Source: a virus (lineage: Duplodnaviria > Caudoviricetes). From it: a stretch of 35,444 bases of DNA. The stretch spans positions 1-35,444 of the IMG/VR virus record IMGVR_UViG_3300022695_000041; one strand, given 5' to 3'. The notes under the pieces are model-generated. The model was not told the DNA's origin. It was given only the letters and a program-made list of their open reading frames with translations, and ran no database searches. The translations under genes and the position numbers were made by a program. Below, in pieces: positions 256 to 15,624 of the stretch. The stretch's first letter is position 1. The number at the start of each line of letters is the position of its first letter.

Positions 256-659
256 CCTATCACCTCCATCACAGCCGCACGCACGGCTTCTGTGTATGTT
301 TCAAACACTTCCGATTCCTTCATTATTCTCTGATCTTCCCATATCCAACCGGGCGGCGTGTAATCTGCATGGGTATGGGCTAGGCATATTTGATACTTCT
401 CCCCAAGCATTTTCACCACAGGAACGATTATGTCTGGGGCGGATAAGGTGAACTCGCCATCTTCGGTAAAAATTGCTTTTCCGTATTTTATTTTTCCGTC
501 TTCTGTCCATGTTGTTTCTACAAGCTGTGGGTGTTGCCCAAGTAACTTAGCCGCTGCCATATCTGCTTTTAGTTTATCACTCATAGTCTCTCCTCCTATT
601 TCTTCACATATCTCATCTGCATGCTCAAGGAAGTAAGATGGCTTGTGTATGTTACGCAT
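252..659 (-). CDS. hypothetical protein
   Basis: 135 aa ORF starting right after the previous stop (TAGATG). An in-frame ATG at 584 with AGGAGG upstream is an alternative start. Confidence 0.7.
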   Translation of the reverse strand: MRNIHKPSYFLEHADEICEEIGGETMSDKLKADMAAAKLLGQHPQLVETTWTEDGKIKYGKAIFTEDGEFTLSAPDIIVPVVKMLGEKYQICLAHTHADYTPPGWIWEDQRIMKESEVFETYTEAVRAAVMEVIG

Positions 660-845
660 CTATTCCAACTTCCTTGGTTCATCTCCCCACACCATAGGCT
701 TGCCAGTTAGCTTCTCTGCTGTGCCTTTTGGAACATTTGCAAAACCACTATGTACCTGCCAAACAGGCGTATTCTTGTTTTCAACGTATGGTTTGTACTC
801 TGAAATAATCTCACCGCCATCCTTATCTACTGCTATCCAAGCCAT
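660..845 (-). CDS. small phage hypothetical protein (MAWIAVDKDG...)
   Basis: 61 aa; strong SD AAAGGAGG; abuts its neighbours. Confidence 0.75.
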   Translation of the reverse strand: MAWIAVDKDGGEIISEYKPYVENKNTPVWQVHSGFANVPKGTAEKLTGKPMVWGDEPRKLE

Positions 846-1157
846 TTATTCCTCCTTTATAACTGCATCATAAGCACCAAGATTGTCGGCTATCATCATA
901 GCTATGTTAGCTACATCGGCTGCTTCTAACCTAACATCGTTCAAGGGAGCGCCTTCCACCTTATAAAGCATAACTGCCAGTGCTAGTTCTTCGCTTTCTT
1001 CGCGTAGTTTTCTAAGCAGAAACTGATGAGTACATGCAGGCTGTTTCCACCCACGCTTACCGCCCTCACTAGGCCAACCTTTCTTATCTGCATTGGCCTC
1101 TAACTTTTCCTGCATAGCGTCTGCCATAGCTATGACTGATGGATGATATTCGTTCAT
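846..1157 (-). CDS. MazG-like all-alpha NTP pyrophosphohydrolase-domain protein
   Basis: Motifs KLREESEELA and EAADVANIAMMIAD match the EExxE...ExxD pattern; SD AGGAGG. Confidence 0.6.
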   Translation of the reverse strand: MNEYHPSVIAMADAMQEKLEANADKKGWPSEGGKRGWKQPACTHQFLLRKLREESEELALAVMLYKVEGAPLNDVRLEAADVANIAMMIADNLGAYDAVIKEE

Positions 1158-1212
1158 CTATTCCTCCTCACCAATTATCTTTTATTGTACGTTTAGCCTT
1201 AAATGGTTTTGT

Positions 1213-1323
1213 TCAAGCCAACATATGCAGAAACAATATCCCCAAGCACACGATAGCAAACGAAAAACTAAGTATCAGCGTCACAACAGCAACACTTATT
1301 GCGGTATCAATTTTCTCTTGCAT
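1213..1323 (-). CDS. 36-aa membrane peptide (not in ORF track)
   Basis: Translated by hand: MQEKIDTAISVAVVTLILSFSFAIVCLGILFLHMLA; SD AAAGGAGG. Confidence 0.55.
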   Translation of the reverse strand: MQEKIDTAISVAVVTLILSFSFAIVCLGILFLHMLA

Positions 1324-1831
1324 CTATTCCTCCTTTGTCTTTACGGTAAGCCTGCCTTACTCCATTAAACACCCACCCTTTTGCGCTCTTAACCGATCCG
1401 CACTTCATTGCATATAGTCTATATCTTGAAATCATGTACCTATCTTCAAATTGAATAGCAGTTCCTTCAAATCTTCCGTGGAGTTCATTAGTAAGTGTGT
1501 ATATATCACCTTTATAGCACGGCCCGTTTACACCATGACGATCCCTCATTCTGCCCTTATTAATCATATCACGCATATTTTCTGTGTGAGTTCCAAGAAA
1601 TAGGTGGTCTGGATTGACGCATAACGGAGTGTCACATGTATGGCATACAAATAGCCCTTCTTTTATTGGGCCGTTGAAATACTCATAAGAAAACCTATGA
1701 GCACCTACCGTCTTACCGTTTAAGAAAAATCTTCCGTATTCTCCGTTATCTGATCACATCCATATATGGCAACCAGTTTCCGGTATTGGCATTACTTTAT
1801 CTGTAAATCTAGCGATTGTTGAATATTGCAT
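1307..1831 (-). pseudogene. HNH homing endonuclease 1 with in-frame TGA at codon 26
   Basis: ATG 1831 with SD GGAG gives MQYSTIARFTDKVMPIPETGCHIWM*SDNGEYGRF...AHRFSYE...VCHTCDTPLCVNPDHLFLGTHTENMRD, in frame with track ORF 1307..1576. The stop is at 1754-1756. Confidence 0.85.
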
Positions 1832-1935
1832 GATCTCTCCTATCAGGTAATTTCATCCTATCGCCGGGGGAGCAACCCGCCCGGCTCATCTGATAGGATG
1901 TTATCGCATTATACATTACCAAATATAAAAATCAA
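1829..1935 (-). promoter_or_regulatory. HNH-associated promoter plus structured leader, copy 1
   Basis: TTGATT-16-TATAAT-6-ACATCCTATCAGATGAGCCGGGCGGGTTGCTCCCCCGGCGATAGGATGAAATTACCTGATAGGAGAGATC-ATG; aligns with copies 2 and 3. Confidence 0.8.
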
Positions 1936-1938
1936 TCA

Positions 1939-2352
1939 TCAGAAGGGTATGCTTGAATTGTCAGCATTACCTTGAAACGGATCATTGTTCTTCTGTTTCT
2001 GTGCTGGCGCTTGCTGCGTTGCCTGCTGTTGCGGCCTTCCACCAAGCAACGCAACATCATCAACAATCAAATCCACAGACGTTTTCTCTGCGCCTTCCTT
2101 GTTCGTGTACTGGTTCACCTTCAACTCGCCGCTGACAGCTACTTGCTGACCTTTAACAAGGTACTGAATCAAGCCACCCTCTGCACGTTTCCCGAATAGG
2201 GTGCAGCGAAGCCATGATGTATGTTTATTTTCTCCCCACCCTGATTCAACGGGAATGGAAAATGTAGCTACTGCTGTCCCTGATTGAGTGCGCCTGATCT
2301 CGCAATCCAGGCCAAGGTTCCCGATTGCTGTCATGTTGTTTTTGATATTCAC
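1939..2352 (-). CDS. ssb: single-stranded DNA-binding protein
   Basis: IGNLG..., KGQQVAVSGEL, Q-rich linker and C-terminal IPF. Probable GTG start at 2352 overlapping the previous stop. Confidence 0.95.
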   Translation of the reverse strand: MNIKNNMTAIGNLGLDCEIRRTQSGTAVATFSIPVESGWGENKHTSWLRCTLFGKRAEGGLIQYLVKGQQVAVSGELKVNQYTNKEGAEKTSVDLIVDDVALLGGRPQQQATQQAPAQKQKNNDPFQGNADNSSIPF

Positions 2353-2492
2353 TTTTGCACTCCGCACACAGTGCAGCGAACCTTGCCCTTGCCGCTTCCA
2401 TCCTTCGGGCTACAATTATGCACCCGCTGGCCCTTGCCGTATTTCTTATCCTGATACTCATGTTTGCATGTGCAACTTCTAATTTCTGCCAT
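2349..2492 (-). CDS. 47-aa Cys/His Zn-ribbon-like protein
   Basis: ATG 2492 with SD AAAGGAG; motifs CTCKH...HN...CTVC. Confidence 0.7.
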   Translation of the reverse strand: MAEIRSCTCKHEYQDKKYGKGQRVHNCSPKDGSGKGKVRCTVCGVQK

Positions 2493-2596
2493 TGTTATTC
2501 TCCTTTGAATTGATGCTGGTATATTATGCGACCGCCAGCCCGGTGCTTCACTTCCGGCAAGGAAAGGAAGGGAGTGAACCCTGCCGGTGGAACTGG

Positions 2597-3364
2597 TTAC
2601 CCGCGCATTGACCATGCGGGAAGTGATAATCGTGTGACTCCATTAGGATCATTATATCCCGGCCAGTCGTCAAAGTCACGGCAGAGGATATATGTGTTCA
2701 GCCATGCGTCACGTTGTTCTAGTCCGCGATCTATAGCTTCCTGATCAAGGCGATAGCATTCGACAACATTGGTTTTCTTTTCTAATACAACAAATACAAA
2801 TTCATCAGCCTCGAATCCTTCCATGTAATGCGCAGCTTGAACATGATAGCTGAAATCAGCACATGACTTTGAGAACGCTCCCGGCGCTGCACAAGTCGTA
2901 GTTTTCAAATCGACGAGAATATCTGACACATAATCAGCCTTCGCCTTCAACTCCTCACCAGTCTTTTCATGCTTCCAGAACATTGCTCGCTCTGCCAAGC
3001 CTCCTGATAGCAGTTTAGAAGCCATAGGATGCGCGTGAACGGCTTTTTGTGCGTACATGGCGGCGTCATACTGCACTGGCGTGATAACCTCCTTATCGGC
3101 ATTATCTTCGCAGAACGCGGCCCATTCAGCTTTTCCGGCGTTTGTCCGCTTGTTTATCTCTGGTGCAACGATGTACCGGCTATCAAAAGCATCTGGCTCA
3201 AGCACAGCGCAGTGAATCATTGAGCCTTCGGCCATTGCCGGAGTCGATGGAAACGGCATCCGGCTTTTCATCGGGCAGTCCATGCGCGATAGCAATGATT
3301 TACTTATTGCGGGGCTGGCGAAATACTCGTCATCTGGCATGCTTATACCTTCACGCATCTGCAA
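2597..3364 (-). CDS. PD-(D/E)XK exonuclease, RecE/ExoVIII C-terminal-like (DUF3799 type)
   Basis: ISKSLL, GSMIHCAVLEP, KRTNAGK, KAKAD...VDLKTT, YHVQAAHY and C-terminal WPGY...LPAW. Confidence 0.9.
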   Translation of the reverse strand: MQMREGISMPDDEYFASPAISKSLLSRMDCPMKSRMPFPSTPAMAEGSMIHCAVLEPDAFDSRYIVAPEINKRTNAGKAEWAAFCEDNADKEVITPVQYDAAMYAQKAVHAHPMASKLLSGGLAERAMFWKHEKTGEELKAKADYVSDILVDLKTTTCAAPGAFSKSCADFSYHVQAAHYMEGFEADEFVFVVLEKKTNVVECYRLDQEAIDRGLEQRDAWLNTYILCRDFDDWPGYNDPNGVTRLSLPAWSMRG

Positions 3365-4046
3365 ACTCCTGCTTACGCTGGTTTATGAGCGTGGCGTATT
3401 TGGCATTACGCCCGCACTCCTTATCCCATACAGCTTTCAGCTCTTCCATGTTGGACGCTTTTTTAATGGCCTCGGCAACGGAAACAACACCCTCGACTTC
3501 ATTCGCTGCATTCCCGTCATCGTCTGATTCATCTGCGGACGCAAGCCCAAGAATTGACGACAATGTATATCGTTGCAGATATGTCACAGCCGAACCGATA
3601 GCCTGTATGCTGTTCTTACTCCCTGATTTGTCCGGCTCTGAAAACAATGTCGTGGACTCTGAATGTCCGAGCGTATGTGTTACCCTGCAAGTCACTGAAA
3701 CCGCGCCTGACGCTTGATCTGTAGTCCATGAATGCGACAATCCGCAAGCCTCAAGGTGTGGCTTGATCTGTTCAATCGTTTCAGCCAGTCCAGCGTATTT
3801 GCTGTTATGCGCCTGCTTTGTCTTTTTAATCACCGGACACTCAGCCCGAAACTTCGACATGGCCTGATTGTAAGCCTTGCGTGCTTCATTCGCTTCCCAC
3901 TGTTGTTGTAACTGCCACAGCTTTTCCAGCTTATCAACATCGGCATTTTGATTCATGGCCACTTCAATTAGTGCCATTGGTGTTACTGCCTGGCCTGTTA
4001 TCTGCCGGACTTCACCTACTTCGACTTTCTTAACTGCTGTACTCAT
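3351..4046 (-). CDS. erf: ERF family ssDNA annealing protein
   Basis: KYAGL and GSAVTYLQRYTLSSILGL...DDDGN, the ERF signature; adjacent to the exonuclease and SSB genes. Confidence 0.9.
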   Translation of the reverse strand: MSTAVKKVEVGEVRQITGQAVTPMALIEVAMNQNADVDKLEKLWQLQQQWEANEARKAYNQAMSKFRAECPVIKKTKQAHNSKYAGLAETIEQIKPHLEACGLSHSWTTDQASGAVSVTCRVTHTLGHSESTTLFSEPDKSGSKNSIQAIGSAVTYLQRYTLSSILGLASADESDDDGNAANEVEGVVSVAEAIKKASNMEELKAVWDKECGRNAKYATLINQRKQEFADA

Positions 4047-4180
4047 TATAAACCCCCATTGTAAAAATCATCGTCGCTTTCAATATCAGTAATGTCATGG
4101 CCTCTGTCCATATATCCGGCAATCAACATCACACCCACAAGACCGAACGTAAGAGCAATTATCCATAGTCCTATGCTCAT
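4046..4180 (-). CDS. 44-aa single-TM protein with acidic tail (not in track)
   Basis: MSIGLWIIALTFGLVGVMLIAGYMDRGHDITDIESDDDFYNGGL; TAATG overlap with erf. Confidence 0.6.
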   Translation of the reverse strand: MSIGLWIIALTFGLVGVMLIAGYMDRGHDITDIESDDDFYNGGL

Positions 4181-4281
4181 AACCTTGTCCTCTCTATAGC
4201 TACCATCTGGCCGCTTTTCAGCGTTATGATAGCGTATGATGTGCGGTGGCGCAGTAACCTCCTCAGAATTGATTTAATCAT
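4177..4281 (-). CDS. 34-aa basic hypothetical protein (not in track)
   Basis: ATGA overlaps at both ends fill the gap exactly. Confidence 0.45.
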   Translation of the reverse strand: MIKSILRRLLRHRTSYAIITLKSGQMVAIERTRL

Positions 4282-4544
4282 GCCGTTATAGCCATTAGCG
4301 ATTGAATATCTTCTTCAATCTTTTCCAGCCTAACTTGAGCATCGGCTTTAACTTTTTCGGACTCTGATTTCAATGATGCAACTTTAATATCCCTGATTTC
4401 AATGTCCGAAGGCATATCAAATTCAGCTTCAACTTCGACTTCACCCAATGCCACGCAATACTTCTCATCCTTTGTGGCATATGATTGCATAGCTGGTTCC
4501 CTGTCAAACCATTTCACAATATACATTTTCTGTTTAATTTTCAT
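4278..4544 (-). CDS. hypothetical protein with C-terminal coiled coil
   Basis: 88 aa; SD AAGGGAG; ATGA overlap. Confidence 0.75.
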   Translation of the reverse strand: MKIKQKMYIVKWFDREPAMQSYATKDEKYCVALGEVEVEAEFDMPSDIEIRDIKVASLKSESEKVKADAQVRLEKIEEDIQSLMAITA

Positions 4545-4852
4545 TTGTTATTCTCCCTTAATTCTACAAGCTGTTCATCACGGAACCGCTCGTATTCGTA
4601 ATCAGCCTTTTCAGCTTCTGCATCTTCCACCTGCTGCTGAAAGTCGGCTTCGGCTTCATCCATAAACCAATCCATATCATCCTCGGAAACGTCGCCGGTT
4701 ATGTTATGCGTGCCGAAAAGGATTACTTTGATAATCTCCAGTTCAGCGTTTTCCTCTGGATCAGTGCGTGTCGCTGGCATGAATTTACCATGCACTTGAT
4801 AATGCACAGTTATCGGCCAGTCGTTTTCGTTGTGAATTGTAAACTCATACAT
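4541..4852 (-). CDS. acidic hypothetical protein, first gene of leftward arm
   Basis: 103 aa; SD AAAAGGGAG. Confidence 0.75.
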   Translation of the reverse strand: MYEFTIHNENDWPITVHYQVHGKFMPATRTDPEENAELEIIKVILFGTHNITGDVSEDDMDWFMDEAEADFQQQVEDAEAEKADYEYERFRDEQLVELRENNK

Positions 4853-4937
4853 AGATTATACTCCCTTTTATCATCTGCCCTGCACCATAGTCACCCGGTT
4901 AGTGGTATCGTGGCCGTAGGTGCTGCTGACAAACCGA

Positions 4938-4966
4938 ACCGTAAACCCATCGAAAGGGAATGTCAA
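4938..4966 (-). promoter_or_regulatory. leftward sigma70-like promoter (pL-like)
   Basis: TTGACA(4966-4961)-17-TACGGT(4943-4938). Confidence 0.65.
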
Positions 4967-4972
4967 GCGATA

Positions 4973-5001
4973 TTGACGCTGGTGATTATTTATGATACGA
5001 T
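4973..5001 (+). promoter_or_regulatory. rightward sigma70-like promoter (pR-like)
   Basis: TTGACG-17-TACGAT with TGn extension, upstream of the Cro-like gene. Confidence 0.7.
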
Positions 5002-5019
5002 TCGGCCAAGGAGATTACT

Positions 5020-5217
5020 ATGGAAAAAGAAACTATTTGGCAGCGGCGTATAAAATCATTAGCAGAGAAAGGATTTAGCCAATCCGATATTGCCTTGCAA
5101 GTTGGCTGTACGCGGGCAGCTATCTCATTGCTCGCCCTGGGTGATACGATAACACCATCATATAAAATCGGTGTGGGAATAAACTCGCTTTGCGTCAGGG
5201 AGGCTATTGATGAATAG
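5020..5217 (+). CDS. Cro-like XRE helix-turn-helix regulator
   Basis: GFSQSDIALQVGCTRAAISLL...PSY; 65 aa; SD GGAG; first rightward gene. Confidence 0.8.
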   Translation: MEKETIWQRRIKSLAEKGFSQSDIALQVGCTRAAISLLALGDTITPSYKIGVGINSLCVREAIDE

Positions 5218-5228
5218 GGGTATTTATT

Positions 5229-5489
5229 ATGAAAGTATTATTACATGAATTAAGGCCGGTGGCGCGGAAAGAGTATCGCTGCATGGCGTATGATATTATC
5301 GACGACTACAGCGAATTTACCCATGATGAATTAAAAGCATATGCTCGGATGAAACGGAATGGCGGCATGATTCAGAAAGGCGAGCGGTATCTTCGGCAAT
5401 CATGTGTCAGGGATGGCGAGGTTTACGAATGGATAGCAAACATTGAAATGCATAATATTTGCATAAAGGATGATTTGTATGATGAATAA
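5229..5489 (+). CDS. phage hypothetical protein
   Basis: 86 aa; ARKEYRC...IQKGERY pattern. Confidence 0.75.
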   Translation: MKVLLHELRPVARKEYRCMAYDIIDDYSEFTHDELKAYARMKRNGGMIQKGERYLRQSCVRDGEVYEWIANIEMHNICIKDDLYDE

Positions 5490-5499
5490 ACATTTGCAC

Positions 5500-5621
5500 T
5501 TGACTCCCCGCTATCCTTGCCTAGAGTGCTGATGTCACTCATCCCTACATGGGGCATCATGGGGCTTCTTGCCCCGCCCCTGAAAGGGTGCTTTGACTGA
5601 CTAGGCGGGGAGAGTGACATC
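5500..5621 (+). promoter_or_regulatory. putative promoter plus multi-stem structured leader upstream of primase
   Basis: TTGACT-16-TAGAGT, then a 10-bp inverted repeat GATGTCACTC(5531-5540)/GAGTGACATC(5612-5621) enclosing GGGGC-TTCTT-GCCCC and CCC-TGAAA-GGG. Confidence 0.5.
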
Positions 5622-5652
5622 ACCTGCCAACGAATTAAAATAAAAGCGTTTC

Positions 5653-7044
5653 ATGGCGCGGGACGAGTGTGTCTTGAGAACGGCAGGAGAAGTAGTGGAG
5701 ATACAAGCACAAACAATAAACAGCAGAGATATTATAACAGAGTATTTACGATCACACAATGCACACGCAACGATAATTTGGCAGTGGGCAATGTCAAAAC
5801 CAAGTAACTGGGCTTTTAGGCGCGATGACATACTTGGCAGCCTTGCAGTACCAAGGCGAGCATATAAACAAGCTGGCGACCTTCTGAGAAGCCTTGGCTT
5901 AATGAAAACAATCACAACCACCGCACCGGATGAAAGCAACCCCCAAGTAAAAACAATTAAATCCTCACAAATAATTTTCTTCGACTACCCACGCAATGAG
6001 TTCTGGAAAGGTGAAAAATCACGACAAACTTTTATCCCTATTCCCGCACTACAGGAAGGGTCAATCATGCAAAAAACTTTACATAATACTGAAAAACCAT
6101 CAAAAAACGTTGAAAGTACACCGAATTGCACAGGGTGTGAAAATATAGATCATCATGTTATAACAGATAATACTGTTCTTGAAGTCCACGAGGCTATCCC
6201 ACAATGTGAGTGCGTGAATAACTTGAACGGAATGGAGCAGCGCATGATGTTTGCTGAACAGTTTGAAGGCAACATGATATGGCAGACGTTTGATGACAAT
6301 TCAGACAGGCGGGATGGAAACCTGACGAGAGTATTTCAGGGCGGGATATGGGATGTTCAGGACACGCTGGAATCATTGAACAAGCGTGGTGCCGGAATCT
6401 TCATGGCAGTGAATGAGATGAAGGGCGAAAAGAGAGGGAATGCCGAAACTAAGCGAGTGCGATACCTTGTTGCTGACTTTGATGGCGTTGATCCACGGAA
6501 GGCATTTACTGACAAGCCGCATATCATTGTTGAATCAAGCAAAGGTAAGTTTCACTGTTATTGGAAAATATGCGACTGCCCACCTGATGCTTACCAGAGA
6601 CTCCAGAAATCAATTATCAGGAAATACGGAAGTGATAAAGCAGTGAGCGACTTGGCGAGGGTGTTGAGGGTGCCGGGCTTTATTCACCAAAAAGCGAAAG
6701 GTGGTGAATCATCAGCACCGTTTGAAACGAAACTACACTATGTCGGAAGTCATCCACCGCTAACATATTGTGACGCAATCGAACTATTCCCGCCCGAACA
6801 GGTTAAACAATGGAGTGCGCCAAAATATCGGACGGATACAGGTGGCGAGTTCAAGGGCGAATACGGAGTAAGCGAGGGCGGAAGAAACGATCACATAGCA
6901 AGGCGTATTGGAGGAATGTTAAAGCGAGGGCTTGATTGGCTGACGATTGAGCACGAAGCCATGAAAGAGGCTCAAGCATGCAGTCCACCGCTTTCCGAAC
7001 GTGAAACAATGTCGATAATCAATTCAATGAGGCGCTACGCATGA
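5653..7044 (+). CDS. RepB-type AEP DNA primase with PriCT-1-like C-terminus and N-terminal wHTH-like extension
   Basis: ADFDG, IVESSKGKFHCYW, SDLARVLRVPGF, and EGGRNDH...PPLSERE. Confidence 0.85.
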   Translation: MARDECVLRTAGEVVEIQAQTINSRDIITEYLRSHNAHATIIWQWAMSKPSNWAFRRDDILGSLAVPRRAYKQAGDLLRSLGLMKTITTTAPDESNPQVKTIKSSQIIFFDYPRNEFWKGEKSRQTFIPIPALQEGSIMQKTLHNTEKPSKNVESTPNCTGCENIDHHVITDNTVLEVHEAIPQCECVNNLNGMEQRMMFAEQFEGNMIWQTFDDNSDRRDGNLTRVFQGGIWDVQDTLESLNKRGAGIFMAVNEMKGEKRGNAETKRVRYLVADFDGVDPRKAFTDKPHIIVESSKGKFHCYWKICDCPPDAYQRLQKSIIRKYGSDKAVSDLARVLRVPGFIHQKAKGGESSAPFETKLHYVGSHPPLTYCDAIELFPPEQVKQWSAPKYRTDTGGEFKGEYGVSEGGRNDHIARRIGGMLKRGLDWLTIEHEAMKEAQACSPPLSERETMSIINSMRRYA

Positions 7045-8657
7045 ACACATTGAAGCTACGCGACTATCAAGAACATTCACTACAACTACTACGCCAAGCA
7101 TTCAGCCAAGGTCATAAAAGGGTGGTGCTACAGCTTGCAACAGGTGCCGGGAAAACAGAATGCGCCTGCCAGATCATACTGAACGCATTATCGAGGGGGA
7201 AAAGGGTTGTGTTCACTGTGAATAAGATTGTGCTTTGTGAGCAGGCAAGCGCAAGGCTGGATAAATATGAAGTTCCTCATGGAATTTACCAAGCGAACAA
7301 TGAACGATGGAACCCGGAACAGCCATGCCAAGTGGCAAGCGTTCAAACACTACTACGCAGAAAAACACTTGAGGAAGTTGATATTTGCATAGTCGATGAA
7401 TGCCATTGCCATGCAAAAGCATTGGAAAAACTGGCTGTATATAACCCTGACTGTTTATTCATCGGATTGAGCGCAACACCCTATAGCAAACTTGCGCCAT
7501 GGTGGCAGAAATTAGTCACTGGTGTTACAATGCAATATCTGATGGATACCGGACACTTGGTAAAATATGATGTATTCGCTGCGCCTTGTGCTGATCTTAG
7601 CGGCGTAAAAATAGTAGCAGGCGAATTTCACCAAGGTCAGCTTGCAGAGGCAACAGACAAACCAAAACTTACAGGCGACGTTGTTTCTACATATCAGAAA
7701 ATAGGCCAAGGTAAACAGGGTATAATTTTTGCATGCAATAGGGCGCACGCGAAACATATCGCTAATGAATTTAATCGACGTGGCATACCCGCTGAAAGTA
7801 TAGACTGCTATTCCAAGCCGGAAGAAAGAGAAAACATGATTGACGCATTCAATTCGTGTGAGTTGAGAATACTTGTTTCGATTCAAGTCTTAACGACAGG
7901 ATTTGATGCCCCTATTGCTGGTTATGCTGGGCTTGCATGTGCAACAAAGTCGAGAATAAAGATGGCACAGGCGCTTGGCCGCGTACTTCGGCCATGTGTA
8001 GGAAAAGACAAAGCCATAGTCGCTGACCACGGGCAGAACTGTGAACGGCTCGGCTTTCCAGAGGACTGGAACGATACAGAGTTGGATGACGGCAAACGCC
8101 AAAAGCAATCAAAAACAAAAGAACGTGAAGCGCCACAGCCGAAAGCCTGCCCTTCATGCGATTACATAAAACCGGCTGGACGTCACAAATGCCCTGCATG
8201 CGGGTTTGCTCCAGAAAATATCCGTGATGTTGAGTTTGAAGCTGGTGAACTTGTGCGAATCCAGAAAAGATCACGCAAGCAATACAGCACAGCAGAAAAG
8301 CAGGAGTTCCTGGATGGGCTGAATAAATACGCCAAGGACAAAGGATACCGAAAAGGAAAGGGCGCTTATGGATGGAGCCTTCACGCATATCAGGATAAGT
8401 TCGGATGCTCCCCGTCAAACAAAATGGATTGGGGAAGTGTTGGCCCGATCACGGATGAAGTGAGAAACTGGATACAGCACAAAAACATAGCGTTCGCAAA
8501 AAGTAAGCCAAAGGACGGCAATACTATCAAGCCATGTAAGAAATGCGGCTCGACAAGGTGGAAACGTGGGGAACCTGTTGCACCACACGGAAACAAGCGC
8601 CTTTGCGAGAATAATCACTTTTGCGGGTTTTATAAGAAAGAATTGACGTGTAGCTAA
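7041..8657 (+). CDS. SF2 DExH helicase with Zn finger (RadD/YejH-like)
   Basis: LRDYQ, ATGAGKT, DECH, SAT, TGFD, QALGRVLR, CPSC...CPAC. Confidence 0.95.
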   Translation: MNTLKLRDYQEHSLQLLRQAFSQGHKRVVLQLATGAGKTECACQIILNALSRGKRVVFTVNKIVLCEQASARLDKYEVPHGIYQANNERWNPEQPCQVASVQTLLRRKTLEEVDICIVDECHCHAKALEKLAVYNPDCLFIGLSATPYSKLAPWWQKLVTGVTMQYLMDTGHLVKYDVFAAPCADLSGVKIVAGEFHQGQLAEATDKPKLTGDVVSTYQKIGQGKQGIIFACNRAHAKHIANEFNRRGIPAESIDCYSKPEERENMIDAFNSCELRILVSIQVLTTGFDAPIAGYAGLACATKSRIKMAQALGRVLRPCVGKDKAIVADHGQNCERLGFPEDWNDTELDDGKRQKQSKTKEREAPQPKACPSCDYIKPAGRHKCPACGFAPENIRDVEFEAGELVRIQKRSRKQYSTAEKQEFLDGLNKYAKDKGYRKGKGAYGWSLHAYQDKFGCSPSNKMDWGSVGPITDEVRNWIQHKNIAFAKSKPKDGNTIKPCKKCGSTRWKRGEPVAPHGNKRLCENNHFCGFYKKELTCS

Positions 8658-8754
8658 ACAAGAATATAATAGACGCACATCCTATGCAGATGAGGCGGGG
8701 CTTGATCTCCCCGCCGAGCATAGAGATGAAATTACCTGCATAGGAGACATCATG
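8643..8754 (+). promoter_or_regulatory. HNH-associated promoter plus structured leader, copy 2
   Basis: TTGACG-16-TATAAT-6-ACATCCTATGCAGATGAGGCGGGGCTTGATCTCCCCGCCGAGCATAGAGATGAAATTACCTGCATAGGAGACATC-ATG. Confidence 0.8.
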
Positions 8755-9396
8755 GTGAACTTCCCAACAAAAAAAACAAAAACATGGATGATAAATAGGC
8801 GTACACACATATTCGGAATTGGTATAAACGATGCAGACTATGTAACAGAGATAAAGATAGATGGAAGGCGCATTAAGTGTCCATTCTCTGTTGTATGGAA
8901 AAATATGATAATGAGATGTTATTGCGACAAATATCAGAAGATGAATACAACGTATATCGGATGCACGGTTTGTGAAGAATGGCTATTGTTCAGCAATTTC
9001 AAAGCGTGGATGGAACAACAAGATTGGATAGGTAAAGAACTTGACAAAGACATTATCAAATTCGGCAACAAAGTTTATTCACCAGAGACTTGTTGTTTTA
9101 TATCTACAAAAATAAATTGTTTTTTGTTGGATAGTGCAAAGAACAGGGGCAGTTACCCTATAGGGGTAAGCTGGCATAAGGGCGCTAATAAATTCAGATC
9201 GTATTGCAAGAATAATGGTAAAGTTGAATGTCTTGGTAATTATTTGACAGCAGATGAAGCAAGCGCAGCTTACTATAAACGCAAAAATGAAATAATTTAT
9301 GAAATAGCAATGCAACAAACAGATTTACGAGTAAGGAATGGTTTGCTATATCGTATAAGTAAACCTTATGCAAAAGCCCGCAACCATAACATATAA
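8752..9396 (+). CDS. HNH-like homing endonuclease 2 with AP2-like C-terminal domain
   Basis: GIGIND, VWKNMIMRCY, VCEEWLLFSNFKAW, ELDKDI...YSPETCCF, GVSWHK...LGNY...EA; visibly AT-rich. Confidence 0.8.
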   Translation: MVNFPTKKTKTWMINRRTHIFGIGINDADYVTEIKIDGRRIKCPFSVVWKNMIMRCYCDKYQKMNTTYIGCTVCEEWLLFSNFKAWMEQQDWIGKELDKDIIKFGNKVYSPETCCFISTKINCFLLDSAKNRGSYPIGVSWHKGANKFRSYCKNNGKVECLGNYLTADEASAAYYKRKNEIIYEIAMQQTDLRVRNGLLYRISKPYAKARNHNI

Positions 9397-9446
9397 CTAT
9401 TATACATTACCGGCAGGGTGATGATAATTGCGGCAAGAGGTGACAA

Positions 9447-9686
9447 ATGAATCTTGAAAGCGTAAGATATAAACGATGCACAGAGTGCGGCAGATTTCAT
9501 CCAATGGCGCATATTGTGCCAAACATTATTGTGGAGCGGAAGGATTACATAGCTGACAATTACAAGGCACACAAAAACAAACGCTGCTCCCCCTGCATCC
9601 GGGCAGAGATAGAACGACTCAAGACAAATGGCAGCCGTGAGGCGATGACTCGCATGTGTAAATTACAAAAGCAGGTGACGGCATGA
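9447..9686 (+). CDS. Cys-motif hypothetical protein
   Basis: CTEC...CSPC; SD GAGGT. Confidence 0.65.
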   Translation: MNLESVRYKRCTECGRFHPMAHIVPNIIVERKDYIADNYKAHKNKRCSPCIRAEIERLKTNGSREAMTRMCKLQKQVTA

Positions 9687-9928
9687 AAGGCTGGAATCAA
9701 CGCAACCCCGCAGGCTGGGAACTTATGCTTGATATGCCGGCCGCTGGCGAACGACTGGTTGATATTGCAAAAGCAACCGGAATACCGAGGCCGACTATCA
9801 ACACCCGCCTGATTCGCTATGGCAGATATTCGCGGGAGATTAAGGATACGCTGCCGCGCCCGTCCGAACCAACCTTTTGGCATGATGACAATGCGACAGT
9901 TAATCCGGCGTTGAGGTTGTTTGCATGA
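9683..9928 (+). CDS. HTH-like hypothetical protein
   Basis: LVDIAKATGIPRPTINTRL; ATGA overlaps. Confidence 0.65.
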   Translation: MKGWNQRNPAGWELMLDMPAAGERLVDIAKATGIPRPTINTRLIRYGRYSREIKDTLPRPSEPTFWHDDNATVNPALRLFA

Positions 9929-10632
9929 GTATCGAGTTGATTCAAGGTGATTGTATGGATTACTTACGCGATCTGCCGGACAATGCCTTTGAACTGGCGA
10001 TTGTTGATCCGCCTTATGGGATAGGATTCGATGGTCATGATCAAATAACATCTAACAAAGGTAAAGGTAGAACATTCAAAAAAATAAAACTATATGCAAA
10101 AAAAGATTGGGATTTTTCAATTCCAAGCAACTTTTATTTTGAGCAATTAAGAAGGAGTAGCGTTAATCAAATAATATGGGGCGGGAACTATTTTACCAAT
10201 TACCTAACACAAACAAAGTCTTGGATATTCTGGGATAAAGTTCCGAATACAAATAACCTTACATTTTCAGATGGCGAATTAGCTTGGACAAGCACAAAAA
10301 CACCTACCAGAATGGTAAGTATTCCGTGGATTGGTTTTGGCATGCTGAACGGGGGGGAAAGAAAACAGCATCCCACTCAAAAACCAGTCAAGTTATATGA
10401 ATGGCTCCTAACCAACTACGCCAAGCCGGGAGATAGGATTCTGGACACTCACCTCGGCAGCGGCTCCAGCGCCATAGCATGCCACAACCTCGGTTTTAAT
10501 TTTGTCGGAATGGAGCTTGATAAAGACTATTACGAAGCTGCCTGTAAGCGGCTTGAGAACCACCAGAAGCAGCCACGAATGTTCGATATGCCGCTGGAGC
10601 AGAAAACAGCCGAACAGGGGGCATTGCTATGA
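9925..10632 (+). CDS. beta-class N6-adenine/N4-cytosine DNA methyltransferase
   Basis: GDCM...VDPPY precedes HPTQKP and ILDTHLGSGSS. Confidence 0.92.
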   Translation: MSIELIQGDCMDYLRDLPDNAFELAIVDPPYGIGFDGHDQITSNKGKGRTFKKIKLYAKKDWDFSIPSNFYFEQLRRSSVNQIIWGGNYFTNYLTQTKSWIFWDKVPNTNNLTFSDGELAWTSTKTPTRMVSIPWIGFGMLNGGERKQHPTQKPVKLYEWLLTNYAKPGDRILDTHLGSGSSAIACHNLGFNFVGMELDKDYYEAACKRLENHQKQPRMFDMPLEQKTAEQGALL

Positions 10633-10769
10633 CCCGCGCTCAATATCTGCCAACCCTGCTAATCTGCATCAACATAGCCAGCGCCGGAATGTACGCTATG
10701 GATGGTGACGTAAGACATACATTTTATTGGATAAGCGCCGGAATTTTAACAGCGTGCGTTTCGTACTAA
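10629..10769 (+). CDS. 46-aa two-TM phage protein (not in track)
   Basis: MTRAQYLPTLLICINIASAGMYAMDGDVRHTFYWISAGILTACVSY; ATGA and TAATG overlaps. Confidence 0.65.
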   Translation: MTRAQYLPTLLICINIASAGMYAMDGDVRHTFYWISAGILTACVSY

Positions 10770-11002
10770 TGAGCATGCCACTGAAAATACTCCGATTGTG
10801 CGCTTTCCGCTACGCTATGGGCCGCAAAACGATGCTCGTACTGGACGTGATAGAGGAAATATCGGAACACTGGAGCGAGATGGAAGGCTTCCAGAAGCAA
10901 ATACAGGATGATATAAAGCATGCTATATATCACGGCATCATCGGTGATTCAAGGGACGTGAAGGCATGGGAAAAGATATTGAAACTGGAGGTTACGGAAT
11001 GA
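10769..11002 (+). CDS. hypothetical protein (AFRYAMGR motif)
   Basis: In-frame ATG at 10769 coupled to the previous stop. Confidence 0.7.
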   Translation: MSMPLKILRLCAFRYAMGRKTMLVLDVIEEISEHWSEMEGFQKQIQDDIKHAIYHGIIGDSRDVKAWEKILKLEVTE

Positions 11003-11169
11003 GCGTTTACATATGCCTTGATTGTGGCAAAGAAACGCCGAATATGAACAGCATCTGCCAAGTATGCATGGGTAAGCTGCAAAAGCAGGGCGAAAAGGCG
11101 CGTCAGGCGGCACAGAATCGATCAGGACGCGAGGAAAGGGAAAATATGGGTAAGGGTAGCCAGAAATGA
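10999..11169 (+). CDS. small Zn-ribbon protein
   Basis: CLDC...CQVC; SD GGAGGT; ATGA overlaps. Confidence 0.65.
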   Translation: MSVYICLDCGKETPNMNSICQVCMGKLQKQGEKARQAAQNRSGREERENMGKGSQK

Positions 11170-11672
11170 ATATAAGCCGCGTATGGGCGATGCCGAACAA
11201 AAATACTTTCAGCATAAAGCCAATAGCAGAATTGATAGCCAGAAACTTATCAGGATATTCAATCGACCCATTTGCAAACAACAATAGACTCGCAACAGTA
11301 ACGAATGATCTGAACCCTGATTACGAAGCTGATGATGCAATGGATGCGCTTGATTTTCTAAAGATATTCGCAGATGAATCAGTGGATACAGTTTTGTTTG
11401 ACCCGCCATACTCACCAAGGCAAGTGAGCGAGTGTTACAGAAGCCTAAAAATGGCCGTGAATATGCAGACGACACAAGCAACCTTTTGGAGTAATATGAA
11501 GGCTGAGATAGCCAGAATAACAAAGCCGGGCGGAAAAGTTATAACGTGCGGATGGAATAGCGGTGGCATTGGATTGAAATATGATTTTGAGCAGGTGGAG
11601 ATATTACTTGTCCCACATGGTGGATGGCACAATGACACGATAGTTACGGTTGAACAAAAGGCTATTTTATGA
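11166..11672 (+). CDS. short phage DNA adenine methyltransferase-like protein
   Basis: IDPFAN (motif I-like), FDPPYS (motif IV), ARITKPGG. Confidence 0.8.
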   Translation: MNISRVWAMPNKNTFSIKPIAELIARNLSGYSIDPFANNNRLATVTNDLNPDYEADDAMDALDFLKIFADESVDTVLFDPPYSPRQVSECYRSLKMAVNMQTTQATFWSNMKAEIARITKPGGKVITCGWNSGGIGLKYDFEQVEILLVPHGGWHNDTIVTVEQKAIL

Positions 11673-11697
11673 GTAAACCAACAAAGCAGGAGCGACG

Positions 11698-11982
11698 ATG
11701 ACAGCAAGTAAAAACAAGCGAGCGCCCACGAAAGCAGAGCGCGAACATATCCAGAGGGTGAAGTCTCTGCCTTGTTCGATATGCGACTGTCTTGGCCCAA
11801 GCGAGGCCCACGAACAAAAGCAAGGCCAGTGGTTCACGGCAGTAGCTTTATGCTGCGAGTGTCATCGTGATAACATAATGGGATGGCACGGACAGCGACG
11901 CGCATGGAAAATACGGAAAATGGATATGGACGACGCCCTCGATAAAACGCTGAGGCGGGCGTTCGAGTTGGCTGAACTGTGA
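11698..11982 (+). CDS. Ref/DUF968-like Zn-binding nuclease
   Basis: LPCSIC...EAH...ALCCECHR...GWHG; located in the nin region. Confidence 0.7.
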   Translation: MTASKNKRAPTKAEREHIQRVKSLPCSICDCLGPSEAHEQKQGQWFTAVALCCECHRDNIMGWHGQRRAWKIRKMDMDDALDKTLRRAFELAEL

Positions 11983-12362
11983 TTAAAAGATTCACGCTCA
12001 CAGCCGAAAACAAAGAGCAGGTTATCCCGCTAATCGGCCAATATCTCCGCAACCTGGATTGCACCAAGCCTCAGAGCGTGGTAATATCGGACAACAAAGA
12101 GACACGCCGAAGCCAGCAGAACAGGCTTTATTGGAAATGGGTTAGTATCATTGGCAATGAACTTGGCTACGAACGGCAGGAAATGCACGACACGCTTGTT
12201 TTCCGGCTATTGGGTATGGTGGATAAGGTAATACTCGGAAAGCCCGTCTGTATGCTTGCCAGCACCCATGATATGAGCGTTGCGGATTTCAGTGACTACA
12301 TGGAGCGCGTATCAAGATTTGCGGCAGAAATGAATATCAAGCTACCAGCGGAGGATATATGA
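11979..12362 (+). CDS. NinB/Orf-like recombination protein
   Basis: TRRSQQNRLYWKW...STHDMSVADFSDYME...I.LP. Confidence 0.8.
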   Translation: MIKRFTLTAENKEQVIPLIGQYLRNLDCTKPQSVVISDNKETRRSQQNRLYWKWVSIIGNELGYERQEMHDTLVFRLLGMVDKVILGKPVCMLASTHDMSVADFSDYMERVSRFAAEMNIKLPAEDI

Positions 12363-12538
12363 ATAATCTAGTCACAGCACTGAGCGACTACACAGACCCG
12401 ATGGAGGGCTTTGAAATCTTGAATTGTGCGGTAATCAAAGCGGCGATAATGTGGAACCGTGATCGAACAATGCATTCGGAAGAACTGCTGAAAGTAGCAG
12501 TTGAGGAACTGGAAGAATACCGGCGGCAAGTCGGATGA
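12359..12538 (+). CDS. 59-aa hypothetical protein (not in track)
   Basis: Hand translation MNNLVTALSD...RRQVG; SD GGAGG; ATGA overlaps. Confidence 0.6.
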   Translation: MNNLVTALSDYTDPMEGFEILNCAVIKAAIMWNRDRTMHSEELLKVAVEELEEYRRQVG

Positions 12539-12708
12539 TGTACTGTATCCACGGGCGCAGTGAAAAACAGAAATGTAAGCTGTGCTTTTGTCGCTCGAAG
12601 TGTTGCGATGCTGATGTAAAATATTTCAAAAACGGCTTTAAGCCGTCACCGATAGTTTGTGAAAAATGCGGCAAGGTTTGCGAGGTGCATGATGTTCGCT
12701 ATGACTGA
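12535..12708 (+). CDS. 57-aa Cys-rich hypothetical protein (not in track)
   Basis: CIH...CKLC...SKCC...CEKCGKVC. Confidence 0.55.
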   Translation: MMYCIHGRSEKQKCKLCFCRSKCCDADVKYFKNGFKPSPIVCEKCGKVCEVHDVRYD

Positions 12709-12925
12709 ATCAGCCGAAAAATGCCGGAAAGCACGAAAAGCCCGCGAGGAGTCAAAGCGGAAGTCTCGGATATGGTGGAGAAAGCAACGTGAAAAGCACT
12801 GAATACGTTTATGCAGGTTATTGCCAACACTGCCGGAAATACTACGACACATGGGCAGCGTACAAAGTTTCCAAGTGCGGGCGCTGGTGGGGTGATGCCC
12901 TGGACGATACGGGTAATTGTAGGAC

Positions 12926-13030
12926 TTGCAATAAAAAATCAGCGTGATAATATATGCAAACATCCAGTCGATGAGGCAGGCGGGTTGCTCCCCTGCCGTC
13001 TGGATGAAATTACCGACTGGAGCGTTTATG
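12926..13030 (+). promoter_or_regulatory. HNH-associated promoter plus structured leader, copy 3
   Basis: TTGCAA-16-TAATAT-6-ACATCCAGTCGATGAGGCAGGCGGGTTGCTCCCCTGCCGTCTGGATGAAATTACCGACTGGAGCGTTT-ATG. Confidence 0.8.
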
Positions 13031-13525
13031 CTTACTCAAGAATATGTAAAAAAGATATTTGATTATGACACAGAGTCCGGAATCTTAACGAATAAAATAT
13101 ATAGGAGTTCTAATTCTCCGGCAGGCTCAAGAGCCGGAGCATTCGATCACTATGGATATAGGCAGCTGACCGTCAAGGGTAGAAACTACAAGGAACACAG
13201 AATAATCTATTTATGGATGACTGGGGCAATGCCTGTTCATGGGATAGATCACATAAATGGTATCAAAGATGACAATAGATGGATAAACCTACGCGACGCG
13301 ACAACATCAGAAAACATGAGAAATAGAAAGATGTCAAGTAACAACACAAGCGGTTTTACTGGCGTAGTGTGGTTCAAGCCAATAAAGAAATGGTTTGCAA
13401 GTGTTGAAATGCTAGGGAAGAAGCATTCATTAGGGTACTTTGATGATATAAATGAAGCGGCTAAAGTCGTCCATGTTTTTAAAATGAAGAATGGTTTTAC
13501 GGCGAGGCACGGCATTGAAAAGTAG
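13028..13525 (+). CDS. HNH-AP2 homing endonuclease 3
   Basis: MLTQEYVKKIFDYD..., EHRII, IDHINGIKDDNRWINLR, NNTSGFTGVVW...LGYF. Start moved to ATG 13028 (SD GGAG). Confidence 0.92.
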   Translation: MLTQEYVKKIFDYDTESGILTNKIYRSSNSPAGSRAGAFDHYGYRQLTVKGRNYKEHRIIYLWMTGAMPVHGIDHINGIKDDNRWINLRDATTSENMRNRKMSSNNTSGFTGVVWFKPIKKWFASVEMLGKKHSLGYFDDINEAAKVVHVFKMKNGFTARHGIEK

Positions 13526-13883
13526 AATAATTATGGTTAATTATATTGCGCCAAGTTTGAATACCATATATGCGAACTGCCACTGGACAAAGCGCAAGCG
13601 GCACGCTGATGACGCTCACTTAGCCGTAAAGATAGCCTGCAAGGGGCTTAGGATCGCCGTCAGCGCCGTTTCGCTAGAATTCCAGCCGATGATACGCGGA
13701 AGGTGTTATGACGTTTCAAATTACGCATACTGCATTAAGCTTATCGAAGATGGATTAGTCCGTGCCGGAGTGTTGAAGGACGACACCAACAAATGGGTGA
13801 AGCGCATCATTATCAATGCGCCGCTGAAGGTAGCAAAGCCGGAAACCAGCTACATGCTTGTGACGATTACGGAGCTGGAATAA
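13515..13883 (+). CDS. RusA-like Holliday junction resolvase
   Basis: PSLN...DVSNY...KLIEDGL..AGVLKDD. Start uncertain (TTG 13515 or ATG 13533). Confidence 0.8.
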   Translation: MKSRIIMVNYIAPSLNTIYANCHWTKRKRHADDAHLAVKIACKGLRIAVSAVSLEFQPMIRGRCYDVSNYAYCIKLIEDGLVRAGVLKDDTNKWVKRIIINAPLKVAKPETSYMLVTITELE

Positions 13884-13913
13884 AAAAGCGGCCCATTGCG
13901 GAGCCGCTCTTTT
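13882..13913. terminator. bidirectional intrinsic terminator between convergent operons
   Basis: AAAAAA-GCGGC-CCATTGCGGA-GCCGC-TCTTTT. Confidence 0.75.
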
Positions 13914-13922
13914 CGTGTATAA

Positions 13923-14138
13923 TTATGGTTCGATCTTTACATCTGCAAGCTTACCCTCAGCAACTATGGCTCCTTTGGCTACATTTGAACCGAATGGCCC
14001 CATTTGCCTTATATCGTAATTATAGCCCCCAAAAATGCGCTCAAGCTCTTCTAACGCGTTGATGCGGTCAACATGGTCGGACAGGTTTTTATACTCAATC
14101 TTTACTAGCAGCATTTTAGTCTTGCTAATGACTTTCAT
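13923..14138 (-). CDS. hypothetical protein
   Basis: In-frame ATG at 14138 overlaps the previous stop. Confidence 0.65.
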   Translation of the reverse strand: MKVISKTKMLLVKIEYKNLSDHVDRINALEELERIFGGYNYDIRQMGPFGSNVAKGAIVAEGKLADVKIEP

Positions 14139-14362
14139 TGCACTGTGATTCTGCAATAATCAATGCAAACAAACTTGCGACCGGATGCCATGTAAAGCGA
14201 TTTGCTGGAAGCTTTGAACAATTCATATCCAGCCTTGCGCCACTTATTCAATGCTTTGAGATTGACCTTTGTGGTGTGCGTATGCGTAGAGATAAAAACA
14301 GTCCGACCGGATTCTAGCGCATCCATTATGCCTGATAATTTTTCAGATGGTGTCATTTTCAT
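14135..14362 (-). CDS. hypothetical protein
   Basis: 75 aa; SD AGGAGGT. Confidence 0.75.
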   Translation of the reverse strand: MKMTPSEKLSGIMDALESGRTVFISTHTHTTKVNLKALNKWRKAGYELFKASSKSLYMASGRKFVCIDYCRITVQ

Positions 14363-14369
14363 TACCTCC

Positions 14370-14621
14370 TTATTTTAGGGCGGACAATATAAGCGCCGCC
14401 GCATCTTCAACTGACACCTTCCGACATTCGATAGCAAGCCATTTCGCCGCTATTGGTGCGCACGCTTTGGTCTGTTTTTTATTCATGGCATTGACTCCGC
14501 AGTCATAGCGTGATAATTGACTCTGCGGCATCGACCTGCCGCCTGTTTGTTCTGCAAGCCATTGTGCAAAGCTGGACTGGTTCATGCCGAGCGCGGTTCG
14601 GGTTGTTCGTGAAAGGCTCAT
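14370..14621 (-). CDS. XRE-like HTH protein
   Basis: RTALGMNQSSFAQWL...QSQLSRYDCG. Confidence 0.7.
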   Translation of the reverse strand: MSLSRTTRTALGMNQSSFAQWLAEQTGGRSMPQSQLSRYDCGVNAMNKKQTKACAPIAAKWLAIECRKVSVEDAAALILSALK

Positions 14622-14839
14622 GACATTCCCTCAAAATACTGTTTGCCTTCCGGATGGTTGTTTATATGCCATATTGCCTCATCGGCTGATGAAAAATCAC
14701 AAGGAAAAATATGTGAAGTATGAAACCCAAAAGGAAAAACATGAACAAGCCTTTTGCCTACAAGCACAACGCGTGCGGTAATACGATGACCAAAATAGCC
14801 GTCCGGAACTGAGTATGTCCCGATAAATTCGCTTTTCAT
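14618..14839 (-). CDS. hypothetical protein
   Basis: ATG 14839 with SD GGAGGT. Confidence 0.7.
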   Translation of the reverse strand: MKSEFIGTYSVPDGYFGHRITARVVLVGKRLVHVFPFGFHTSHIFPCDFSSADEAIWHINNHPEGKQYFEGMS

Positions 14840-14935
14840 TTCAAAAACCTCCTGTTCCAATTATCCAAGCTGCATAAAGTGCCAGCCAAAAAGTAAAGCA
14901 TGTGGCGAAAACGATGGCGTCCTGTTTGAGCTGTT

Positions 14936-15133
14936 TCATGGCGTCACCGCTAATCCAGTCTCAGCCATTACAGCCGCTAGTCTCCATTCCTCAATAGTTG
15001 CTGACATCGGCGCGTCATCATTCAGCAATTCGTAAAGGTCGAGTCCTAAGAGGCGAATGTGTGTCATGCCATTGATTTGAGCATGCCGTAAATCGTTGGC
15101 TAGATAATTAAGCACATCCTGATTATTTATCAT
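14936..15133 (-). CDS. hypothetical protein
   Basis: 65 aa; SD AAAGGAGGT. Confidence 0.7.
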   Translation of the reverse strand: MINNQDVLNYLANDLRHAQINGMTHIRLLGLDLYELLNDDAPMSATIEEWRLAAVMAETGLAVTP

Positions 15134-15205
15134 CTTTGTTACCTCCTTTTATTCTAGCGCGTAGGCTAGCGAAGGGCGGCCATTGCTGGCGCGCCTATCG
15201 TTAGA

Positions 15206-15621: not shown

Positions 15622-15624
15622 GAT

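Follow-up and report, generated by a model that had tools for sequence, protein, structure and literature searches.

In the maturation leader of MS2 and other Levivirus phages, an upstream complement pairs to the Shine-Dalgarno (SD) element, and an earlier-forming metastable hairpin traps this complement, leaving the SD open for a time window (PMC4615214). The leader of phage lambda cIII adopts two mutually exclusive folds, one exposing and one hiding the ribosome site, and it serves a single gene, is open in the cold and is aided by RNase III binding (PMC4166951, PMC2777011). In the T-even homing endonuclease genes I-TevI/II/III, segB and Aeh1 mobE, an RNA stem hides the SD so as to limit the enzyme, and relief is provided by a late promoter whose transcripts leave out part of that stem (PMC2988022). 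Here we describe a leader RNA that occurs three times in the IMG/VR virus record IMGVR_UViG_3300022695_000041, a record of 35,444 bases with a GC content of 45% whose entire length we analysed and refer to as the window. With its P22-like portal and coat it represents a double-stranded DNA (dsDNA) phage, and it further encodes a terminase, ERF, SSB, a primase-helicase and methyltransferases. By analogy, the element would work most like the MS2 maturation and lambda cIII leaders while being a member of neither family. We propose, with a probability of roughly one half, that it is a portable promoter-leader module acting as a self-closing translation timer.

Exactly three copies of the leader, each about 70 bases long, are found in the window, at 1829-1901 on the minus strand (copy 1) and at 8677-8754 and 12960-13030 on the plus strand (copies 2 and 3). 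The common layout that the original prediction had described before three genes is in place in each of them, with all elements where they had been located and the promoters of sigma70-like type: a -35 box, 16 nucleotides (nt), a -10 box, 6 nt, ACATCC-X-GATGA, a GC hairpin, a segment B, GATGAAATTACC, a segment C, GGAG, 5 nt and ATG, where X reads TATCA, TATGCA and AGTC in copies 1, 2 and 3, respectively. In copy 2, the promoter (8643-8670, plus strand) has its -35 hexamer TTGACG (8643-8648) within the final codons of a helicase gene and its -10 hexamer TATAAT at 8665-8670, which puts the probable start site at 8677. There follow segment A (CATCC-X-G, 8678-8689), the anti-SD strand used by both predicted folds; the bases ATGA (8690-8693); the central GC hairpin P2 (8694-8715), common to both folds; segment B (8718-8728), the anti-anti-SD that partners A in the open fold; an A/U-rich linker, AAATTAC (8729-8735); and segment C (8736-8746), which includes the SD GGAG (8743-8746) and partners A in the closed fold. 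Copy 1, on the minus strand, has a promoter at 1908-1935 (TTGATT right behind the ssb stop codon, TATAAT), a predicted start site at 1901 and a leader at 1832-1901, with A at 1900-1890, ATGA at 1889-1886, P2 at 1885-1863, B at 1862-1854, the linker at 1853-1847, C at 1846-1838 and the SD at 1840-1837. Copy 3, on the plus strand, has a promoter at 12926-12953 (TTGCAA at 12926-12931 and an extended -10 element, TG-A-TAATAT, with its hexamer at 12948-12953), a predicted start site at 12960 and a leader at 12960-13027, comprising A (12961-12970), ATGA (12971-12974), P2 (12975-12997), B (12998-13006), the linker (13007-13013), C (13014-13021) and the SD (13019-13022).

The promoter of copy 2 matches the consensus at 11 of 12 positions and ranks at the top of the 42 promoters listed in 1-16500, that of copy 1 matches at 10 of 12, and that of copy 3 scores under the threshold of the promoter scan. 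When copy 2 is held out, a covariance model of just copies 1 and 3 recovers it at 44.8 bits (E 4e-9), with the next match at 11 bits, and neither a sequence model nor a covariance model finds a fourth copy in the window. Copies 1, 2 and 3 have folding z-scores of -2.6, -3.4 and -1.9.

Two further copies reside in a second phage record, G101, an 8.2-kb fragment encoding RecE/RecT, a Rha-like and a Cro-like protein, a DUF1376 initiator and DnaB. The record surfaced through a promoter-anchored pattern of the leader's 5' half, which returned 119 IMG/VR loci (46 of 64 parts scanned), one of them a true copy (L459), and the model of copies 1 and 3 identifies both G101 copies with E-values of 1.5e-6 and 1.3e-5 for the record. 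Copy g1 (G101 4182-4257) lies downstream of what appears by eye to be a terminator-like hairpin and leads a 43-codon open reading frame directly before the replication initiator gene, and copy g2 (G101 6866-6938) lies downstream of dnaB and leads a 296-amino-acid protein. Their promoters (L506, about 4147-4174 and 6832-6859) have TTGCT-type -35 boxes and 16-nt spacers; the -35/-10 spacer is thus 16 nt in all five copies rather than the usual 17, and this promoter geometry seems to be part of the module. No other sequence common to the 8.2 kb of G101 and the window was found (blastn E <0.01, tblastx E <1e-4).

Comparison of the five copies, together with folding models, indicates that the leader has two mutually exclusive folds and that both are under selection. 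At positions X1-X4 of segment A, Watson-Crick pairs occupy 20 of 20 cells with C and 18 of 20 with B; the observed value is reached by 1 in 120 whole-segment permutations for C and likewise 1 in 120 for B, and by 16 (C) and 28 (B) in 100000 column shuffles, values that are not strict probabilities because the five sequences are related. CAUCC, the GAUG in B and the complement adjoining the SD served as anchors for the registers, and since the C register was placed by complementarity at X1-X3 its count is partly given by construction, yet it falls on the SD in all five copies; the B register was not so placed. On alignment A4, which was fitted to A:C plus P2 and hence leans towards that fold, with B left unfitted, 98.6% of 73 A:C and P2 cells are paired, 7 of 15 pairs have changed on both sides, and none of 500 shuffles scores as high. 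The P2 helix is paired throughout (100%), with three of its six pairs changed on both sides. Three claims of the original prediction are thereby upheld, namely that C is the exact complement of X over the SD (its GGA is covered in the three window copies), that B is complementary as well and that the central hairpin covaries; it had further held that homologues lacking covariation in B would sink the switch model, and B covaries in both G101 copies. The strongest point for a selected A:B helix is that the G101 copies, found by a pattern and a model that both ignored A:B pairing, still form uninterrupted A:B helices of 8 and 10 base pairs.

These observations bear on two simpler explanations of the repeats. 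In the window copies B and C form a direct repeat with a spacing of 17-19 nt, and B is the less perfect partner, with 18 of 20 cells, a bulged A in copy 2 and a U-U in copy 3, as might be expected if A:C alone mattered, as in a static T-even-like repressor hairpin, and B were a by-product of local duplication or template-switch homogenisation. Random letters at the variable positions of B match the observed open-fold energy in 54-242 of 2000 trials per copy, which also speaks for such an accidental origin. We nonetheless regard a static hairpin as improbable: at three columns, substitutions in A are followed by B in two phages that are unrelated, B always ends in GAUG, pairing a 5' CAUC that C cannot, and a competing helix equal in strength to the repressor helix would defeat static repression. 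Alternatively, the repeats could act at the DNA level, as ends of a mobile unit, a single-strand hairpin signal or an operator, with RNA folding incidental, and the five unrelated cargo genes as well as a relative's contig that appears to be without the third cassette would accord with this. The element, however, keeps a fixed place in all five copies, beginning 6-7 nt past the -10 box and ending on the SD 5-8 nt ahead of the start codon, its helices accept G-U pairs, and the apparent left junction lies inside the promoter and not at a repeat end, so that a DNA-level function appears very improbable indeed.

The two folds are predicted to be near-isoenergetic, within about 3 kcal/mol of each other in all five copies. 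The closed minus open ensemble energies of copies 1, 2, 3, g1 and g2 are -0.5, -3.3, -1.8, +2.2 and +0.1 kcal/mol at 37 °C and -2.2, -5.0, -3.2, +2.3 and -1.9 kcal/mol at 4 °C; the closed fold is predicted to be favoured in four of the five between 4 and 20 °C. In the three window copies every prefix that stops before the SD folds as A:B, and the minimum nested-path barriers from open to closed (12.8, 10.4, 12.8, 16.9 and 13.0 kcal/mol, in the same order of copies) are predicted to be high enough for a metastable state. The computation of alternative folds proposed with the original prediction has therefore returned two rivals close in energy, with A:B forming first in the window-copy prefixes. 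The competing helices are predicted to be staggered: B pairs the 5' CA, which is out of C's reach, C takes up 2-3 bases at A's 3' end that have no partner in B, and in the closed fold predicted for four copies the next UGA pairs with the UUA of the linker (TTA of AAATTAC in copy 2). Open-fold bulges read AGAUGA in three copies, GAUGA and GGUGUA in the others, with their first bases paired in the closed fold in all five; the 6-nt bulge of copy 2, formed by its ATGA and the last two bases of A, is a putative toehold.

We propose that these features could together time translation. As B is transcribed about 15-20 nt ahead of C, A:B is predicted to form first and the SD to emerge single-stranded behind the A/U-rich linker. 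The 5-6-nt bulge begins with bases matching C's start and the linker UUA, and it may then act as a forward toehold from which C displaces B and buries the SD, and the 5' CA, pairable by B alone, may act as the return toehold. Early-loading ribosomes would delay closing, so that the nuclease, replication or regulatory protein made from each transcript would come in a brief burst or at a low, steady level. In our models the anatomy favours kinetic strand exchange, and most invariant letters may be explained without a ligand, CAUCC/GGAUG as anti-SD plus return toehold and AUGA/UUA as forward toehold. More tentatively, and with less than even confidence, we suggest that the module is a natural self-contained toehold-exchange device, a 70-nt leader with its own promoter that would be open at birth, close without a trans-acting factor and be reused as a plug-in dose limiter for unrelated genes. 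Branch-migration exchange has a precedent in designed cotranscriptional switches (PMC1802593).

Several points weigh against this timer. In g1, the open fold is predicted to be about 2 kcal/mol stabler at all five temperatures and the closed fold covers only the first G of the SD, and copies 1 and g2 are balanced at 37 °C, so that a one-way relaxation to the OFF state is not predicted for all copies. The linker of 3-5 nt is perhaps not long enough to meet the bulge unless some fraying occurs, a site for a protein or a nuclease would explain the conserved unpaired bases equally well, and the computed barriers come from nested paths that leave out the pseudoknotted toehold route and hence yield no time scale. 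Finally, the comparison comprises only five sequences of common ancestry, among which copies 1 and 2 share X1-X3, as do copies 3 and g2.

An open-favouring g1 and two balanced copies fit a poised equilibrium switch resembling that of lambda cIII, with interconverting folds whose ratio a protein, a ribonuclease or temperature would tip. Candidate factors include a phage RNA-binding regulator, RNase III binding to the long open hairpin, and RNase E, which by cleaving the A/U linker would release the SD from A; the linker resembles the RNase E site consensus. In none of the five copies are the folds predicted to differ by more than about 3 kcal/mol, and one copy favours open; heat moves the predicted balance towards open in four of them, and conserved single-stranded bases flank P2. 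Precedents come from lambda cIII itself (PMC4166951, PMC2777011) and from Aca2, which binds a phage leader RNA (PMC13551039). The thermal shift is, however, a generic effect of the larger number of pairs in the closed fold, with no trend in g1; the two phages share no other detectable sequence over the 8.2 kb of G101, so there is no evident phage factor common to both; and the P2 loop varies, with three forms in five copies. Furthermore, sites of the CsrA type, whose consensus is ANGGA, are not kept in B, and B of copy 2 contains no GGA at all. On balance, we consider a poised switch unlikely, if a serious contender.

The interplay of SD, anti-SD and anti-anti-SD follows the logic of translational riboswitch platforms, and some unpaired bases are invariant across both phages, as would be expected if a small molecule bound at the junction (the bulge, the A-G at the base of P2 and the linker) and fixed the state of the SD. 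Most invariant bases are nevertheless accounted for by pairing in either fold, and the junction itself varies, with GGUGUA in g1 and a longer linker in g2. The cargo genes share no common pathway, and the best Rfam riboswitch match, preQ1-II, reaches 17 bits (E 1.6; cut-off, 47 bits). We accordingly hold a riboswitch to be a poor prospect and, like the static hairpin with an accidental B and the DNA-level element, less likely than either the timer or the poised switch.

Three other readings were considered and rejected. The hammerhead ribozyme core has an unpaired CUGANGA and a GAA directly after stem II, whereas in the leader the bases at the C-U-G place covary as Watson-Crick pairs with C and the letters following P2 are GAU, GAG, GUC, GAA and GAA; there is no Rfam match. 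A leader-peptide attenuator does not fit because the frames and lengths of internal AUG/GUG readings differ across the five copies, and a standard kink-turn does not fit the 4-6-nt bulge or g1, which has no G-A pair.

Returning to the timer and its described counterparts, prefix folding and the covariation of B predict that, as in the MS2 maturation leader, a hairpin able to form ahead of SD synthesis traps the anti-SD. The MS2 leader is a cloverleaf of a single-stranded RNA phage and adopts its closed fold at equilibrium, whereas the present leader spans 70 nt, occurs in dsDNA phages and contains a single internal hairpin; it also differs in having its own promoter, a direct-repeat competitor and near-equal predicted energies, and in moving between genes. 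With lambda cIII it shares two exclusive folds of similar predicted stability in a dsDNA phage, but here cold is predicted to favour the closed fold in four of five copies. As in the T-even hairpins, the predicted A:C helix covers the GGA of the SD in the three window copies. The T-even hairpins, however, are single-state and relieved by a late promoter, whereas the sole conserved promoter of the present module lies wholly upstream of A in all five copies, in a scan that did not cover phage-specific late promoters; as transcripts are predicted to begin with the anti-SD's first base, refolding would have to provide the relief. In P1 C4 and P4 CI, a processed RNA acts in trans on separate targets, one segment being complementary to two sites in the leader region, whereas all pairings of the present module lie in cis within 70 nt. 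The comparison with these two RNAs made in the original prediction does not hold up, as no second site complementary to the conserved blocks turned up in the window and no Rfam family matches: complements of the conserved 3' block (9-11 nt exact) or of the P2 loop occur in the window only on the copies' own opposite strands, in a record that may be incomplete.

A scan of the window against Rfam 15 gives no match at gathering thresholds, and when G101 and the individual copies are scanned by E-value, all matches stay below threshold, in keeping with the original prediction, which did not recognise a named motif. We found no description of it in the literature, in a search that did not extend to the supplement of PMC5737381 (224 candidate RNA motifs), which could bear on its novelty. 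From sequence comparison and modelling, we consider this cis-regulatory RNA family to be real and apparently undescribed, with selection on two folds and a predicted function. The opposition of anti-SD and anti-anti-SD is already known, and the family is so far rare. Few natural cases of translation control by folding order have evolutionary proof for both states, and here compensatory changes occur in both competing helices in two unrelated phages. As the module is tiny, has its own promoter and comes in five natural variants whose balances are predicted to span -3 to +2 kcal/mol, the timer model is directly testable. If it is correct, the helix letters would be free to change as long as the three segments stay matched, which would permit reuse by phages and selfish nucleases alike, and a borrowed throttle that phages also set before replication or regulatory genes would be one route by which mobile nuclease genes become tolerable.

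Searches for further homologues were extensive. IMG/VR patterns requiring the 3' block or the loop gave 0/5, 0/49, 0/1 and 0/14 true copies, and patterns of the same kind gave 0/118 in JGI metagenomes (57 of 64 parts scanned) and 0/27 in GTDB contigs; as they would have missed both G101 copies, these counts are no proof of absence. Searches by blastn with copies 3, 1, g1 and g2 against cultured phages and with copy 2 against plasmids returned short chance matches or none. Of the models, R1 found nothing in 5 records and R2 nothing in 96 loci or in sets of 48 and 50 phage records. Model R3 recovered no copies beyond the known five in 86 sources, gave no significant match in 88 loci and found none in 49 other records (with G101 as positive control) and none in sets of 5 and 151 cellular genomes. 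A five-copy pattern matched 0/401 and 1/401 genomes, with five control matches in the latter. The upstream regions of L055-L068 were checked by models only. The family is therefore rare in the collections searched or more diverged than the models reach. One candidate in a cellular genome (L507:1458-1524, minus strand; 21.6 bits) combines a 12-base-pair A:C-like stem with an ACATCC-like start but has no B, promoter or SD-start arrangement, and was dismissed as a chance match.

A different structured leader was noticed upstream of, or near, PHROG 953-type genes at L081:1413, L087:1016, L108:2819, L116:1215, L118:1169 and L133:1213, and by eye in L078. It features GGA-UAG, a P2 with a GGAGUARYUR-type loop, GAYAAG and a P3 loop complementary to a downstream segment, and the five examples scanned have no Rfam match. 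By eye, the P2 loop of three of our five copies (GGUUGCUCC) is loosely like the GGAGUAGCUACC loop of these three-way-junction leaders, in which, unlike in our copies, the complementary segment sits in a hairpin loop within a closed junction. Membership of our copies in that family was rejected, since a profile of six such leaders matches none of the five and the 88 loci without a significant R3 match include them. A group I intron (Rfam RF00028, 68.7 bits) also lies upstream of a PHROG 953-type gene, at L067:883-1147.

The cargo genes of the three window copies encode proteins that are mutually not alignable (best BLAST E 0.03) and fall into PHROGs 1872/59, 953 and 99 (cargos 1, 2 and 3). Cargo 1 (1307-1831, minus strand) is an HNH_3 endonuclease gene with an in-frame TGA at codon 26 (1754-1756), where three homologues carry Gly, Gly and Ala. 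Recoding of this TGA was rejected: TGA terminates 11 of the 24 genes checked, which indicates that gene 1 is broken or mis-assembled. As an anecdotal observation, the leader of this broken gene has the weakest predicted closed fold of the window's three (-0.5 kcal/mol). Cargo 2 (8752-9396, plus strand) encodes a 214-amino-acid protein of the PHROG 953 'HNH endonuclease' class (E 4e-83) that has no Pfam match and, by pattern, no canonical HNH motif, its HNH class deriving from PHROG 953 alone; some of its homologues have an AP2 domain. Cargo 3 (13028-13525, plus strand) encodes a 165-amino-acid HNH_3/PHROG 99 endonuclease. The earlier description of three different HNH endonucleases is thus right as to distinct families but has to be qualified for gene 1, interrupted by its TGA, and for cargo 2, which is HNH by PHROG 953 only. 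No leader precedes the remaining, fourth HNH gene, at 32863-33195 (PHROG 144).

The g2 cargo has no Pfam or PHROG match and falls with four other clusters at 50% identity; its structural neighbours, antirepressor-like, are of AntA/Rha/Bro type only and weak (template modelling score, TM, <0.4), and its own structure model is unusable (predicted local distance difference test, pLDDT, 39). In all, three of the five cargos are HNH-class and two are without a nuclease family match. The leader, judged by these sequences, is not nuclease-specific and appears portable with unrelated cargo; of the proposed nuclease-rationing device that moves with unrelated cargo, the second part is retained and the restriction to nucleases is not. 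Mobile endonuclease genes are likely to have taken up the module repeatedly as a ready-made throttle.

Relatives of the window occur in one DNA run labelled hydrothermal vent metagenome, from which 41 contigs were placed on 1-16000, one of them at least 99% alike; no RNA runs are listed among the sequencing runs with matches. One relative's contig (1078 nt, depth 6.6) tracks window positions 12798-12937 with 18 differences in 140 and then departs; its loose end resembles 13507-13518, with 11 of the first 13 letters matching across one gap, as judged by eye on 30 visible letters of this single contig. The weakly defined insert, at about 12938-13506 on the plus strand, would contain the -10 box, the leader and the greater part of the HNH gene. 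The break suggests that a single cassette of -10 box, leader and HNH gene 3 entered the final codons of the upstream gene and uses a resident -35 box. Cassette 2 could not be delimited in this way, since a joint between 8065 and 9354 in a relative's contig has just 20 letters on one side and is too weak.

In G001, the closest relative by capsid (86%), there is neither a leader nor an HNH gene matching the three of the window. In G101, the gene facing away from the Cro-like gene (L506:3025-4042) is Rha-like and not a CI-type repressor, and the C-terminal 25-30 residues of the g2 cargo (L506:6939-7829) are nearly identical to those of P0127, the whole proteins being 44% alike. In the window, a small helix-turn-helix gene lies at 5020-5217, with no clear CI opposite, and two DNA methyltransferase genes (9925-10632 and 11166-11672) lie between endonuclease cassettes 2 and 3. 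Finally, at window position 127 a relative's contig departs into 28 letters with inverted CCCCG/CGGGG-type repeats at both ends, possibly the end of an insertion element.

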